A stretch of 64,000 nt of DNA from an uncultured Ardenticatenaceae bacterium. GTDB lineage: Bacteria > Chloroflexota > Anaerolineae > Promineifilales > Promineifilaceae. Of this stretch, positions 2,610 through 7,289 are shown piece after piece (the first letter of the stretch is position 1; every line of letters begins with the position of its first letter). Location: NCBI GenBank assembly GCA_964384155.1, contig CAYLJW010000004.1:6428-70427 (forward strand), written 5' to 3'. The notes beneath the pieces are model-generated. The model was not told the origin of the DNA. It searched no databases and worked only from the letters and a program-made list of their open reading frames with translations. Made by a program: the position numbers and the translations under genes.

Positions 2610-4106
2610 TCAGGCGTCGTAGTACAGCATGAACTCATAGGGATGCGGGCGCAGGCGCAGGGGGTCGACTTCGCGGCTGCGCTTGACGCGGATCCAGGTT
2701 TCGATGAGCTCTTGGCTAAAGACGCCGCCTTGCAGCAGGAAGTCGTGATCTGCCTGCAGCGCATCCAGGGCGGCTTCTAGCGAGCCGGGGACCTGAGGGA
2801 TGCCGGCCGCTTGCTCGGCAGATAGCTCGTACAGGTCAAAGTCGGCGGGCGCGCCAGGATGGATCTTGTTGTGGATGCCGTCCAGCCCGGCCATGAGTAT
2901 GGCGGCAAAGGCCAGATAAGGATTTGCCGTGGGGTCGGGGCAGCGGTACTCGATGCGTGTGGCGCTGGGACTGGCGGAATAACGCGGAATGCGGATGCCG
3001 GCCGAGCGATTGCGCGAGGAGTAGACCAGGTTCACGGGCGCCTCGTAGCCCGGCGTGAGGCGACGGTAGGAGTTGGTTGTGGGCGCGCAGAGGGCGAGCA
3101 GGGCGGGGGAGTGGCGCAGGATGCCGCCGATGTAATAGAGTGCGGTCTCGGAAAGCGCGGCATAGCCGGCCGCATCGTGGAATAACGATTGGCCCTCTTT
3201 CCACAGGCTGTTGTGCACGTGCATGCCTGAGCCGTTGTCGCCGAAGATGGGCTTAGGCATGAAGGTGGCGGTGTAGCCATGGCGCCGCGCCACGTTCTTG
3301 ATGATGTACTTGTACCACATTTGCCAGTCGCCCATGGCTGTGAGCGAGTTATAACGCAGGTCGATCTCCTGCTGGCCGCTGCCGACTTCGGTGTGGTGCA
3401 TCTCTACTTGCAGGCCGGCCTGAGCCAGGCGCAGGGTCATTTCCGAGCGCATATCCTGCAGGGTATCCACCGGCGGCGACTGGAAGTAGTGCTCTTTGTG
3501 GCGCGCGCGGTGCGCCAGGTTGGGCGCGCCGCCGTTGCGCCCGCTGTTCCACACCGCTTCGTCGGAGTCGAGGAAGTAGTAGGCTGCCTGCGGCGTATTA
3601 TCGAAGCGAACACTTTCAAAGACGAAGAATTCGGCTTCTGGCCCCCAGTAGCTCGTGTCGGCGATGCCCGTCGCAAGCAGGTAGCGCTCGGCGGCCTGAG
3701 CCACGCGCCGCGCATCGCGGTCGTAGGGCCGGCGCGTGAGCGGGTCGGCGACGCTGCAGATGAGGCTGAGCGTGGGCACAGCGAGTAATGGATCGCGCAC
3801 AGCCGTGCGCGGGTCGGGCAGCAGGATCAGGTCGCTTTCCTCAATGCCCTGAAAGCCGACGATGGATGAGCCGTCGTAGCCGATGCCTTCTTCAAAGCTG
3901 CCTTCGTCCAGGGCGCTCAGCGGAACGCTGACGTGCCGCCACAGCCCCAGGAAATCGACAAAGCGCAGATCGACAATGCTCAGCCCATGCTCGCGGGCAT
4001 AGGCCAGCACCTCCGCAGGAGTTGTCAGAGGCTCAGAGGGCGCGCCCTTTAAATCGAGCTTGCCATTCGTATGCAGATCATTGGCTTGTGAAATCTTTTC
4101 TAACAC
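2610..4106 (-). CDS. glnA: glutamine synthetase type I
   Basis: Full-length match to GSI hallmarks (DLRFVDFLG, GSGMHVHNSLW, NSYRRL, SRNRSAGIRIP). GTG start preceded by GGAGG. Confidence 0.95.
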   Translation of the reverse strand: MLEKISQANDLHTNGKLDLKGAPSEPLTTPAEVLAYAREHGLSIVDLRFVDFLGLWRHVSVPLSALDEGSFEEGIGYDGSSIVGFQGIEESDLILLPDPRTAVRDPLLAVPTLSLICSVADPLTRRPYDRDARRVAQAAERYLLATGIADTSYWGPEAEFFVFESVRFDNTPQAAYYFLDSDEAVWNSGRNGGAPNLAHRARHKEHYFQSPPVDTLQDMRSEMTLRLAQAGLQVEMHHTEVGSGQQEIDLRYNSLTAMGDWQMWYKYIIKNVARRHGYTATFMPKPIFGDNGSGMHVHNSLWKEGQSLFHDAAGYAALSETALYYIGGILRHSPALLALCAPTTNSYRRLTPGYEAPVNLVYSSRNRSAGIRIPRYSASPSATRIEYRCPDPTANPYLAFAAILMAGLDGIHNKIHPGAPADFDLYELSAEQAAGIPQVPGSLEAALDALQADHDFLLQGGVFSQELIETWIRVKRSREVDPLRLRPHPYEFMLYYDA

Positions 4107-4144
4107 CGGTAACCTCCATGGGTTTTATGTTGGTTTGTTGGGCC

Positions 4145-4195
4145 AAAACGAAAAACGCCTCCACACCGCGACCGGACTGGTCACGGCGGGAGGCG
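4145..4195 (-). terminator. intrinsic terminator-like hairpin plus TTTTTCGTTTT inside the glnA leader (candidate attenuator)
   Basis: Minus strand reads CGCCTCCCGCCGTGACC-AGTCC-GGTCGCGGTGTGGAGGCG followed by TTTTTCGTTTT. It lies about 40 nt upstream of the glnA GTG and downstream of a promoter-like site. Confidence 0.55.
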
Positions 4196-4275
4196 TCATG
4201 GCCTCAAACACACTATGCTATTTTGTGCAGGCGGCGAACCTTGAAAGAAGCGGCCGCCACGGGCGCACGACTTAG

Positions 4276-4304
4276 AGCTTACGGCAAGGGCCGCCGCTTG
4301 TCAA
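4276..4304 (-). promoter_or_regulatory. sigma70-like promoter for glnA (TTGACA-17 nt-TAAGCT)
   Basis: Minus-strand TTGACA at 4304-4299 and TAAGCT at 4281-4276 with an exact 17-nt spacer. Predicts a leader of about 160 nt. Confidence 0.4.
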
Positions 4305-4392
4305 TGGCGCAAAGTACCAAAAATGTGTGGCGACGGTGTTGGCAACTTTGTCTATAAATGCCCGACAAGTCAGATATGACCCAGGCAGAAGG

Positions 4393-5391
4393 TTATGCCC
4401 GCCCCAGGACGGCTGCCAGCAAGGCCATGCGCACGTACATGCCGTTCTGCGCCTGGCGGAAGTAGGCGGCTCGGGGATCGGCGTCTACGCCGTAGTGGAT
4501 CTCGCCGACGCGGGGCAGGGGGTGCATGACAACCATTTTTTCCTTGGCCTGCGCCATTAATTCCGGTGTGATCACGTAGAAATCGTTCACGGCTTCATAC
4601 TGCGCCAGATCGCTGAAGCGTTCTTTCTGCACGCGCGTGACATAGAGCACATCGGCGTTTTCGATGACGTCGCGCACGTCGTGGGTCTCGCGCACGTCCA
4701 CGCCGGCGTCGATCACCTCATTCATCAGTGTGAGCGGCAGGCGCAGGATCTCCGGTGAGACAAAGCGAAGGCTGATGTCGTAGTGCAGCAGCAGCTTGGT
4801 GAGCGAGTGCACCGTGCGCCCGTAACGCAGGTCGCCGACCATGGCAATCTTCAGACCATTCAGCGTGCCCAGCTCTTCACGAATGGTGAACAGGTCCAGC
4901 AAGGCCTGGGTGGGATGCTCGCCGGGCCCATCGCCAGCATTAATCACGGGCACCGAGGCATAATCGGCCGCCAGTTGGGCAGCGCCAATTTCGGGGTGGC
5001 GCAAGACAATCACATCGGAGTATTGCTCCAGCGTACGCACGGTATCGGCCAGCGTTTCACCCTTGCTCACCGAGCTAAACTGCACGCCCTGAGTGATGGG
5101 GATGACCGTGCCGCCCAGGCGCTTGGCGGCGGCAATGAATGAGGAGCTGGTGCGTGTGCTGGGTTCGTAGAAGAGGCAGGTGAGCACGGCGCCTTCTAAT
5201 AAATTGGCGGCGCCCACGGCTTCTACCATCTCGCGCATCTCCTTGGAGCGCGTAAAAATATAGTCCAGCCTTTGCGGCGTGAACTGATCCACGGACAGAA
5301 TATCCATGCCCGTAAATCCATTGCCGTGGTGACCGTTGTCGCTGGCCATCTTTTTCAAATCAAACAGAGGTTTTAACGTCATACTTTCCAT
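4393..5391 (-). CDS. pyrB: aspartate carbamoyltransferase catalytic subunit
   Basis: Carbamoyl-phosphate motif [21 protein letters not shown]. Follows pyrC by 12 nt. Confidence 0.95.
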
Positions 5392-5403
5392 CGCACATCT
5401 CCT

Positions 5404-6513
5404 TTATAACATTTCATTTGATAGCGGCTCATTGGCAGCTTGCGGCTCCTCCAGGCTGGGCAGCACGCGGCCTGCGCCCGGCTGCGCCAGCACGTGCCCC
5501 TCTTCAAACACGGTTTGGCCGCGCAAAACCACGCGCACGACACGGCCCAGGGCGGTCATGCCCGCAAATGGCGTCCAGGCGCACTTGCTGAACATGCCCT
5601 CGCTGCGAATGACATACGGCTGGCCCACCTGCGCTTCGACATACGTCTGCTCCTGCTGCGGCAGGTTGAAGATGCGGCGCGGGTTGCTGTTCATCAGCGC
5701 GACCAGGCGCTCCTGGGTGAGGCGGCCTTCGGCGACGGCCGTCAGCATCAACGGTAGGGAGGTCTCTAGGCCAGGCACACCTGGCGGCGGCGTGGCGGAA
5801 GCTTTTTCCGCCAGGGTGTGCGGCGCATGGTCCGTGGCGATACAGTCGATTGTGTCGTCGAGGTGTTCCCATAAAGCAGCCACGTCGCTGGCGCTACCCA
5901 ACACCGGGCGCATATCGCCCAGAGCGCCGAGGCGCGGCGCGTCGGCCTCACTTAAGAACAGGTGGTGCGGCGCAACTTCGCAGGTTACGGGCAGTCCCCG
6001 GCCTTTGGCCGCCGCAATCAGCTCGATCTCTTCGCGGCGGCTGATGTGGCAAAAGTGCACGGCGCGGTCGTAGGATGCTGCCAGGCCAATGCCCACAGCC
6101 ACGCTTTGTTTCTCGGCGTGCATGGCAATCAGCTTGTGGCGCGGCCACTTTTCGAAGCAGGCTATCAACGCGGGCACGTCGTCGACGCGCAGCGGGCCAA
6201 ATGTGTCGTTGAGGTAGATCTTCAGGGCCACAGTGAGCGGCGCAAGCTGCTCTAGCTGGTCGATGGCCGTGGCGCTGGCGCCGGCGAATAGACCCACATC
6301 GCAGCGCGCGGCGGCCTGCGCCCTGGCGCGCGCCGATGCCAGCGCGGCCACGTCGATCAGGGGTGGGTTGGTGTTGGGCATGGCCAGGACCATGGTCACG
6401 CCGCCGGCCAGCGCGGCTGCCGTGCCTGTGGCGAAATCTTCCTTGTGCTCGCCGCCGGGCACGCGCAAATGGGTATGCACATCTACCAGCCCAGGCAGGG
6501 TTAAGTGGGTCAC
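5404..6513 (-). CDS. pyrC: dihydroorotase
   Basis: Metal-binding DVHTHLR at the N-terminus and amidohydrolase fold motifs (HAE, ATDHAPH). AGGAGG lies 4 nt before the GTG start. Operon with pyrB. Confidence 0.85.
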   Translation of the reverse strand: MTHLTLPGLVDVHTHLRVPGGEHKEDFATGTAAALAGGVTMVLAMPNTNPPLIDVAALASARARAQAAARCDVGLFAGASATAIDQLEQLAPLTVALKIYLNDTFGPLRVDDVPALIACFEKWPRHKLIAMHAEKQSVAVGIGLAASYDRAVHFCHISRREEIELIAAAKGRGLPVTCEVAPHHLFLSEADAPRLGALGDMRPVLGSASDVAALWEHLDDTIDCIATDHAPHTLAEKASATPPPGVPGLETSLPLMLTAVAEGRLTQERLVALMNSNPRRIFNLPQQEQTYVEAQVGQPYVIRSEGMFSKCAWTPFAGMTALGRVVRVVLRGQTVFEEGHVLAQPGAGRVLPSLEEPQAANEPLSNEML

Positions 6514-6638
6514 ACCACCTCCTCATTCCGGGCGCCAGGCAAAAAAAAGCCCGATCCTGAAAGGATCGGGCTGATAAAATGCCTTCTTACAGCAGTTATA
6601 CAAATGATTTTAGCGGCCCAGCGCCAGAACGGATTCAT
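6510..6638 (-). CDS. candidate 42-aa pyr leader peptide that reads through the attenuator hairpin (MNPFWRWAAKIICITAVRRHFISPILSGSGFFLPGARNEEVV)
   Basis: ATG at 6638 preceded by GGAGA (5-nt spacing). The ORF spans the terminator hairpin and T8 tract, and its TGA overlaps the pyrC GTG (GTGA). No homology evidence is available. Confidence 0.35.
   Translation of the reverse strand: MNPFWRWAAKIICITAVRRHFISPILSGSGFFLPGARNEEVV
6541..6572 (-). terminator. intrinsic terminator-like hairpin plus T8, 28 nt upstream of the pyrC start (candidate pyr attenuator)
   Basis: Minus strand reads AGCCCGATCC-TTTCA-GGATCGGGCT followed by TTTTTTTT. Located between a promoter-like site and the pyrC RBS. Confidence 0.55.
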
Positions 6639-6676
6639 TCAATCTCCATACATGCCGTTCTACATACCGGGATGCT

Positions 6677-6705
6677 ATGATAGCATTTTGTGTTGGCCCG
6701 GGCAA
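6677..6705 (-). promoter_or_regulatory. sigma70-like promoter for the pyrC-pyrB leader (TTGCCC-17 nt-TATCAT)
   Basis: Minus-strand TTGCCC at 6705-6700 and TATCAT at 6682-6677 with a 17-nt spacer. Confidence 0.4.
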
Positions 6706-6731
6706 AAAGTGCAGATCGCGCCACCTACCGC

Positions 6732-7289
6732 TCAATTTGAGATGATTTGGCCGTCTTGCAGACGGTAGACCTCGATAGCAAGGGCGTGAGTCACTAGAAT
6801 CGTGGTCAGGCCGGACTGTTGGTTAATTTGCCGCAGCAGGGCCAGGACTTCGGCGGCGGTCGTTGAATCCACTTCGCCCGTCGGCTCATCGGCCAGCAGG
6901 CGCGGTTTGCTGGCCAGGGCCACGGCAATGGCCACGCGCTGCTGCCGCTTGGCCACCAGCAGCGCCGGATCGTTGGCCGGCGCGGCCAGCCTGGGCAGCC
7001 AGCGCGCCGCCAGGTTTTCCAGCGAAAGCGTGCGGCGCAGCGTCTGGCGGCAGCGGTTGACCAGGATGGCAATGAGCCATGTTTCGAAGGCAGAGTCGCC
7101 GCGAAAGCCGCCAATCTTCTGGAATACGGCCAGATAGGTGTCCTGTACTGCGTCCTTGGCCGCTTCGCGCTCGCCCAGGATGGTATAGGCCAGGTCGAAG
7201 AGCTGATCCTGGTAATGATCGAACAGCGCGGCAAAAGCGCGCAAATCGCCTTCCTGGCAGCGGGCGACCAGGCTGGGTACGTCGGGCAT
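6732..7289 (-). pseudogene. chimeric ORF: ECF sigma-70 region 2 fused to the C-terminal third of an ABC-transporter ATPase (probable rearrangement remnant)
   Basis: Residues 1-95 resemble sigma70_r2 (DAVQDTYLAVFQKIGGFRGDSAFETWLIAILVNRCR). Residues from about 110 carry an ABC signature remnant/Walker B/H-loop (QQRVAIAVALASKPRLLADEPTGEVDS...ILVTH). There is no Walker A and no sigma region 4. Confidence 0.5.

Follow-up and report, generated by a model that had tools for sequence, protein, structure and literature searches.

A conserved pyr leader with the layout of a ribosome-dependent attenuator precedes pyrC-pyrB in uncultured Anaerolineae

Introduction

To our knowledge, enteric bacteria are nearly the only ones in which repressor-free sensing of nucleotide pools through the ribosome is understood in detail. 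Here we describe a leader upstream of the pyrimidine genes pyrC and pyrB in a 64,000-nt stretch of DNA (the window) from an uncultured Ardenticatenaceae bacterium (Chloroflexota; Anaerolineae; Promineifilales; Promineifilaceae; GCA_964384155.1, contig CAYLJW010000004.1, positions 6,428-70,427). The Anaerolineae are abundant in activated sludge and sediments and almost entirely uncultured. Comparison of the window with 174 related loci (80 from genomes and 94 from metagenomes) points to a single conserved pyr leader, previously undescribed, in many uncultured Chloroflexota of this class. Its organization suggests that it probably acts as a ribosome-dependent transcription attenuator for pyrC-pyrB, similar to that of Escherichia coli pyrBI, with the ribosome on the leader serving as the antiterminator.

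In E. coli pyrBI, as in the window, a sigma-70 promoter is followed by a leader open reading frame (ORF; pyrL in E. coli) of ~150 nt with its own Shine-Dalgarno (SD) sequence, 44 codons long in E. coli and 42 in the window. This ORF reads through a GC hairpin and U8 located 23 nt (E. coli) or 27 nt (window) before the first pyr gene, and ends at the start of that gene. The ribosome is the only antiterminator of pyrBI, as it presumably is for the Chloroflexota leader, and the pyrBI attenuator depends on a coupling of translation to termination that published experiments have shown: where a stop codon lies a few base pairs before an intrinsic terminator, termination efficiency falls from ~90% to <10% when translation is coupled, and translation is required for the effect (PMC4824070; PMC5021804).

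A different design, start-site switching sensitive to cytidine and guanosine triphosphate (CTP and GTP), is found in pyrC and pyrD of E. coli and Salmonella, in which a CCGG or CCRG lies 6-10 nt past the -10 element and the 5' Cs pair with a downstream CCGG or CUGG, closing a hairpin over the ribosome-binding region; in E. coli pyrC, high CTP favours starts at C that complete this hairpin and block translation (PMC6524683). The second CCGG of E. coli pyrC overlaps its SD sequence (the E. coli pyrL and pyrC leaders were read from the genome sequence). The E. coli hairpin thus occludes the SD of pyrC itself and its output is translational, whereas the comparable stem described below encloses the start of a leader ORF, with transcription termination as the presumed output. 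PyrR attenuation, known from Bacillus and others (RF00515), likewise relies on a terminator ahead of pyr biosynthetic genes, within their leader. The pyr leader of Thermus, outside the Proteobacteria, resembles the present one in that an ORF overlaps a terminator-like hairpin; it precedes pyrR, and PyrR takes part in its regulation, whereas no linked pyrR was found in the window or the related Chloroflexota loci.

Anatomy of the leader

All features of the leader and of the two genes that follow it lie on the minus strand of the window:

6700-6705, minus strand: -35 element TTGCCC, read from the sequence; 53 of 58 aligned leaders have a TTG 16-18 nt ahead of their -10
6677-6685, minus strand: TG-extended -10 element TGcTATCAT, conserved (hexamer TATCAT 6682-6677, TG 6685-6684, spacer 17 nt)
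6666-6671, minus strand: CCCGGU, the 5' arm of stem P1 and the zone in which transcription is predicted to start, at a conserved spacing of 5 nt from the -10 hexamer
6626-6661, minus strand: inner hairpin P2, AGAACGG 6661-6655 / CCGUUCU 6632-6626, with the SD GGAGA (6647-6643) in its loop and the AUG (6638-6636) in its upper stem
6617-6622, minus strand: 3' arm of P1, GCUGGG, in leader codons 6-8 (minimum free energy fold)
6510-6638, minus strand: leader ORF of 42 codons, MNPFWRWAAKIICITAVRRHFISPILSGSGFFLPGARNEEVV, reading through the terminator; called from the ORF and from frame conservation in relatives
6573-6581, minus strand: U-rich patch CAUUUUAUC, with UUUU at 6579-6576, just upstream of the terminator; read from the sequence
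6541-6572, minus strand: intrinsic terminator (-19.5 kcal/mol), with an 11-bp stem AGCCCGAUCCu / aGGAUCGGGCU (6572-6548), a 3-nt loop UUC and U8 (6548-6541)
6510-6524, minus strand: pyrC ribosome-binding site GAGGAGG (6524-6518) and GTGA start/stop overlap (6513-6510); read from the sequence
5404-6513, minus strand: pyrC, dihydroorotase, 369 amino acids (Pfam; TIGR00857, 281.5 bits against a cutoff of 279.05)
4393-5391, minus strand: pyrB, aspartate carbamoyltransferase, 332 amino acids (Pfam; TIGR00670, 356.8 bits, above cutoff)

An original prediction, made from the letters of the window, had proposed a pyrBI-style attenuator here, and its anatomy is borne out. The TTGCCC-17-TATCAT promoter, the 7-bp hairpin (6661-6655 / 6632-6626) with GGAGA and the ATG at 6638, and the 42-codon ORF that passes through the GC-rich hairpin and U8 (6572-6541) to end in GTGA (6513-6510) are all present, with the terminator stem now counted as 11 bp, and the downstream genes are indeed pyrC and pyrB by their Pfam and TIGR00857/TIGR00670 matches. 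What that reading missed is the outer stem P1 (CCCGGU 6671-6666 / GCUGGG 6622-6617), which encloses P2 in the minimum free energy fold. In the window the SD GGAGA is separated by 4 nt from the ATG, and the stop codon TGA (6512-6510) overlaps the GTG start of pyrC (6513-6511).

From the window alone, this arrangement is not clearly above chance, and each element by itself could be a chance occurrence: promoter-like and terminator-like sites are near shuffle expectation in a 5-kb stretch of the window, and a 42-codon ORF is unremarkable in DNA of 48% GC. For the combination, by contrast, chance is not tenable: about 65 of 77 related loci keep it together with pyrC-pyrB, behind differing upstream genes.

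Conservation and distribution

The genome sample came from a PyrC protein search with one genome retained per species, which gave 80 loci, all from Chloroflexota metagenome-assembled genomes, with PyrC identities of 65-77% and labels that are mostly Anaerolineae, Ardenticatenaceae and Promineifilaceae. Upstream DNA was sufficient in 77 of the 80, and 60 of these 77 carry a hairpin with a near-identical stem (A/G-GCCYGAUYC, short loop, GRAUYRGGCU, U7-10) at a distance of 25-270 nt from pyrC. Five further genome loci have a diverged hairpin, bringing the leader to about 65 of 77, and more distant members (L061 and L066) have other stem sequences. In most related loci pyrB comes next after pyrC, and the upstream neighbours vary. 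The leader of the window is identical (411/411) in an independent assembly from another sequencing run. We considered whether the hairpin might be a genome-wide repeat or a generic terminator and rejected this, as each 9-kb locus has a single copy and so does the 64-kb window.

A single metagenome scan with the hairpin pattern yielded the other 94 loci, of which 38 continue into pyrC, almost all of them with the promoter motif described below, while 47 are unrelated and 9 are ended by a contig edge. In these 47, both pyr genes and the promoter motif are missing and the hairpin loops are ordinary. In three metagenomic loci (L090, L132 and L167) a leader with the promoter motif stands directly before pyrB, without pyrC, and in another (L129) promoter, leader and terminator lie ~170 nt upstream of a 398-amino-acid ORF for a lipoprotein with an NMT1/THI5-like domain, possibly a component of a pyrimidine-related transporter. 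Since the leader precedes pyrC, pyrB alone or this NMT1/THI5-like gene, it is tied to pyrimidine genes and not to pyrC as such. A full-text literature search for a pyrimidine leader or attenuator in Chloroflexi returned nothing relevant, and Rfam holds no such family.

This distribution also bears on whether the element is regulatory at all. The hairpin lies 160 nt past the stop of the upstream ORF at 6732 and might simply terminate that ORF; equally, a promoter, ~130 nt and a terminator together look like a gene for a small RNA, or for an independent small protein. The first of these possibilities had been named as the outcome that would overturn the attenuator, and it fails on two counts: a conserved promoter separates the upstream ORF from the hairpin, and the upstream genes vary while the hairpin travels with pyrC, pyrB or the transporter gene. 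As the leader invariably points in the direction of pyrC or pyrB, at a distance of 15-270 nt ahead of the gene, and its peptide is unconserved, we regard a non-regulatory origin as extremely unlikely.

Some loci depart from the usual arrangement. In L040 (5197-5216) the conserved hairpin sits between pyrC and pyrB and not upstream of pyrC. L005, L012, L018 and L020 carry an insertion, a long inverted repeat (GAGATTGGACCAATTT ... AAATTGGTCCAATCT), that parts the leader terminator from the ribosome-binding site of pyrC, and other inserts of ~140 nt separate the leader terminator from pyrC in L002, L010, L017 and L022. In L065 (1372-1456), three tandem 33-nt repeats, each with the hairpin CCCGATTTGGAAAATCGGG, lie ~2.5 kb upstream of the pyr leader.

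The leader ORF is kept open up to the terminator

Start codons in the related leaders were chosen by position and by an SD match of at least 4 nt, with ORF length ignored. An SD-preceded start codon is present in 46 of 61 leaders, and 56 of 58 have an ORF that is open to the hairpin; leader ORFs measure 20-45 codons across relatives. The comparison of reading frames across the hairpin, which had been put forward as a check on the pyrBI-type interpretation, came out in its favour. In the genome loci the chosen frame is free of stops before the hairpin in 44 of 46 cases, against 9 and 12 of 46 for the other frames (a mean of 0.04 stops versus 1.48 and 1.04), and among 24 distinct metagenomic leaders it is open in 23, versus 6 and 13.

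These ORFs end in the hairpin, at its base or past it. The stop lies at -3 from the hairpin (TAG in AUAGCC) in 16 loci and at +2 (UGA within CCUGAUCC, in the 5' arm) in 12; it comes a few nucleotides earlier in 4 loci, inside the hairpin in 4, and beyond the U-tract in about 12, including the window. No leader ORF stops more than ~12 nt ahead of the hairpin. Within the subclade formed by the window, L095 and L074, the last of these carries deletions of 2 nt and 1 nt, 20 nt apart, that jointly preserve the frame. An NTGA overlap with the pyrC start is kept throughout this subclade, and also occurs in L037 and L057.

The encoded peptides vary by subfamily (MPGITGKK..., MLNFTWNRQ..., MAWLTGKKH..., M[NR]PFWRW...) with length and frame retained, and the residues that they have in common coincide with the arms of P1 and P2. 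These patterns indicate that selection acts on translation up to the hairpin and not on a peptide product.

A stem at the predicted start site encloses the leader start codon

Of 58 leaders, 54 have the TG of the extended -10, and conservation in each column of TAnnAT reaches 88-97%. A YCC(A/G)G motif lies exactly 5 nt past the -10 hexamer in 56 of 58, even as all other spacings vary (67-140 nt from start zone to hairpin, for example). The composite TANNATN5YCCRGT occurs once in the 64-kb window, where 0.09 occurrences are expected, and once per locus in 46 loci, always on the pyrC strand and just upstream of pyrC. An invariant distance of YCC(A/G)G from the -10 is expected if the 5' end of the transcript falls within the motif, and transcription is accordingly predicted to start in or beside CCCGG (6671-6667). 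A GUG that follows YCCR is ~85% conserved, which pairing alone does not account for. We tried this GUG as a leaderless start codon in the main family (type A) and rejected it, its frame being neither open nor in phase with the SD-AUG ORF.

When 58 leaders were folded independently, with positions counted after the -10, 54 had G partners for the Cs at positions 7 and 8; across the family, P1 joins YCC(A/G)G to codons 5-7 of the leader ORF. Position 9 forms G-C in 27 folds, A-U in 18 and G-U in 8 and is unpaired in 5, and position 6 forms C-G in 17 and U-A in 8. A second comparison used a rule for the 3' arm that is blind to the 5' arm and takes the first C[CT]GG found 9 nt or more past the leader AUG. 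A 5' A then goes with CUGG in 12 leaders and with CCGG in 1, and a 5' G with CUGG in 9 and with CCGG in 25 (Fisher p = 6e-5 for the purine:pyrimidine association, without correction for ancestry). These alternations of G-C and A-U amount to covariation in support of P1. The single-sequence folds and the rule-based arm comparison stand in for RNAalifold, which returned no structure on a MAFFT alignment of the 5' module because MAFFT misaligned CCGG (left-aligned) against CCUGG.

Equivalents of P2 with differing sequences (AGGCA/UGCCU, AGAACGG/CCGUUCU, GCGG/CCGC and others) are present in most relatives, with the SD in the loop and the AUG within or beside the 3' arm. A conserved 5' structure followed by a terminator, upstream of metabolic genes, could in principle be a riboswitch, with P1/P2 as a small-molecule aptamer and the terminator as its expression platform. 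Yet the loops and junctions of P1/P2 are unconserved except for the SD and the AUG, neither the folds nor the alignment of the leaders showed a conserved helix that would compete with the terminator, and scans of the window and of 16 related loci gave no Rfam match at gathering score (the matches at E <= 10 being terminator-driven only). We therefore consider a riboswitch very improbable.

The fixed position of the Cs suggests another use of the same parts, in which the main input is start-site selection as in E. coli pyrC/pyrD. At high CTP, transcription would start at a C 6-8 nt past the -10, P1 would close over the leader ribosome-binding site, and the untranslated leader would terminate; at low CTP, a start at the next purine would leave P1 short of two or three G-C pairs, allowing the leader to be translated and the terminator to be read through. 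Such a switch could coexist with sensing of uridine triphosphate (UTP). It would fit the spacing of YCC(A/G)G, the pairing of positions 7 and 8 and the covariation at positions 9 and 6, as well as the placement of the P1 3' arm at +13 to +18 relative to the AUG, a stretch that a 30S subunit covers during initiation. E. coli pyrC, moreover, has its CCGG...CCGG design at about the same distance from the -10. In computed folds, opening the leader ribosome-binding site costs on average 1.5 kcal/mol less once the Cs are removed, and the saving exceeds 0.5 kcal/mol in 37 of 56 loci. This computed effect is small, however, and absent for the window (2.7 vs 3.5 kcal/mol). A stem at the 5' terminus could instead stabilize the mRNA or, as a pause hairpin, bring ribosome and polymerase into step, as happens in the trp leader. 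Given the small effect on the ribosome-binding site and its absence in the window, we rate start-site switching as possible but doubtful.

Terminator and flanking U-rich stretches

Stems of the terminator in related leaders have 10-13 bp with 5-7 GC pairs and are followed in most cases by 8-9 uninterrupted U. Their loops are 57% U in 47 distinct pyr leaders, versus 25% in 37 unrelated hairpins (Mann-Whitney p ~1e-5), the controls being metagenome hairpins of the same stem pattern without promoter motif or pyr gene. The 25 nt ahead of the hairpin are G-poor and moderately T-rich.

The stem sequence GCCYGAUYC is conserved in ~60 loci, and pairing alone does not explain the retention of its CCYGAU core. 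Conservation of GCCYGAUYC / GRAUYRGGC far beyond the needs of a generic terminator would be understandable if a trans-acting RNA-binding protein, PyrR or an analogue, bound this stem or P1, the small ORF then being incidental. The P1 5' arm UCCCAGAG of L069, L073 and L077 also bears a faint likeness to the PyrR box, UCCAGAGAGG. The original prediction had reported neither a PyrR-binding loop nor pyrR in the window, and wider searches agree. The Rfam PyrR model RF00515 has no match at E <= 10 in 6400-6800 and none at its gathering score in the window or 16 loci, and tblastn with B. subtilis PyrR at E <= 0.01 has none in the window or the 174 related loci (~1 Mb). In contrast to PyrR attenuation, the leader ORF here is translated by all indications of its frame, and neither antiterminator/anti-antiterminator helices nor a linked pyrR-like gene were found in these loci. 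A binding protein would also leave the maintenance of the ORF frame unexplained, and the stems of the distant L061 and L066 differ; control by such a protein is thus unlikely.

Immediately after the U-tract, a GCC (window 6538-6540, UUUUUUUUGCC) is conserved in most related Chloroflexota leaders. A GCC likewise follows the terminator of E. coli pyrL (UUUUUUUUGCCCAGG; E. coli L176, ~3418-3420).

A proposed attenuation mechanism

The anatomy, conservation, frame maintenance and P1 covariation established by these computations are consistent with the following sequence of events, in which the transcription start, its coupling to translation, the nature of the signal and the sensing of UTP are inferred. 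Transcription would start at the TG-extended -10 promoter, in or next to CCCGG (6671-6667), and a ribosome would load at GGAGA/AUG (6638) and translate the 42-codon leader. By default, transcription would terminate at the hairpin and U8 (6572-6541), 27 nt before pyrC, with read-through only if the leading ribosome trails RNA polymerase closely enough to cover the 5' arm of the hairpin. The folds and alignment showed no alternative antiterminator helix, which leaves the ribosome as the sole candidate for this role. The signal would probably be the supply of pyrimidine nucleotides, conveyed by the speed of the polymerase: at low UTP the polymerase would slow at the U-rich patch, the U-rich loop and U8, so that the ribosome catches up and read-through follows. 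With several U in the loop, by which point the 5' arm is already out, and 8-9 U in the tract, low UTP should delay the polymerase just where a trailing ribosome can occupy the 5' arm. In the subclade of the window, where the leader stop overlaps the pyrC start (GTGA), the same ribosome could then hand over to translation of pyrC.

Several considerations weigh against this interpretation. The U-tract ahead of the hairpin, to which the original prediction had given a part, is present in the window and only weakly conserved across 43 non-redundant leaders (T 0.39 at -10..-6), so that the UTP-pause component relies mainly on the composition of loop and tract and on analogy. The support is computational throughout, the start site is a predicted one, and tight transcription-translation coupling in Chloroflexota is presupposed. 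The counts given above carry no correction for shared ancestry; about 43 leaders are less than 70% identical to one another over the 60 nt upstream of the hairpin. Finally, ~17 GC-rich leaders, here called type B, show no SD-AUG at the position where the others carry it.

The type B members are L021, L057 and L067, together with the metagenomic L082, L084, L098, L101, L116, L126, L137, L142, L148, L149, L165, L166, L169 and L175. Their leaders have an 8-9 bp hairpin at the extreme 5' end (CCAGUGUG...CAUACUGG) and two more GC hairpins before the terminator. All 17 keep the frame of the conserved GUG after YCCR free of stops through the terminator, versus 11/17 and 1-2/17 for the other frames, and most internal ATGs lie in the GUG frame; this evidence of an open frame is weak because of the high GC content and the relatedness of the leaders. 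A leaderless start at the GUG is a possibility for type B only.

A more tentative extension of the attenuator would merge the enterobacterial pyrC and pyrBI mechanisms into a two-input sensor built from RNA polymerase and ribosome alone. The choice between a start at C and one at a purine (CTP versus guanosine or adenosine triphosphate) would gate the closure of P1 over the leader start codon, and the UTP-dependent speed of the polymerase would gate the arrival of the ribosome at the terminator; in type B, a purine start would also give a near-leaderless mRNA at the conserved GUG. We put this forward as a conjecture that is rather improbable as it stands.

Relation to pyrBI and significance

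The proposed Chloroflexota device belongs with the pyrBI attenuator in kind; what sets it apart is the lineage, the gene under control, a stop that usually falls at the hairpin base, and the start-site stem. The downstream gene is pyrC here and pyrB in E. coli, and most Chloroflexota leaders stop at the base of the hairpin or inside it, not past it. E. coli pyrL has a pronounced U-rich pause region (CCGUUUUUCUUCCCG), of which the Chloroflexota counterpart is weak. The Chloroflexota leader AUG is enclosed by a conserved fold of two stems whose anchor is the predicted start site, and the AAUUUG start of pyrBI, used for reiterative transcription, is absent from the Chloroflexota leader. Beyond the GCC after the U-tract, no sequence similarity to enterobacterial pyrL is visible, the layout alone being common to both, and the sequences thus speak for analogy and not homology.

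If the mechanism is correct, a strategy of this kind arose or persisted far beyond the Proteobacteria, and tight coupling of transcription and translation would be implied in Chloroflexota. For annotators the leader would offer a marker of the pyr regulon, whether it precedes pyrC-pyrB, pyrB alone or an NMT1-like transporter protein, and it would represent a compact natural design that joins a start-site hairpin, a leader ORF and a terminator. The variants that stop at the hairpin base form a natural series on how the distance from stop codon to terminator relates to termination.

Other features of the window

The dihydroorotase of the clade to which the window belongs is short (369 amino acids; 5404-6513 in the window, loci L001-L080) and starts at about position 45 of full-length profile models; the TIGR00857 cutoff is cleared narrowly by the window protein (281.5 vs 279.05 bits).

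Upstream of the leader, the ORF at 6732-7289 (minus strand) fuses the N-terminus of an extracytoplasmic function (ECF) sigma factor to the C-terminal third of an ATP-binding cassette (ABC) transporter ATPase. Sigma region 2 spans residues 6-127 and the ATPase part residues 107-185, and the ORF is probably the remnant of a deletion or rearrangement.

On the other side of the operon, the pyrB-glnA spacer (4107-4392, minus strand) contains a promoter-like TTGACA-17-TAAGCT and a long hairpin (GACGCCUCC...GGAGGCGU plus UUUUUCGUUUU) ~50 nt ahead of glnA. Genes for a GAF histidine kinase and an ANTAR response regulator lie just downstream (278-2509), and the spacer hairpin may be an ANTAR-controlled leader terminator for glutamine synthetase.

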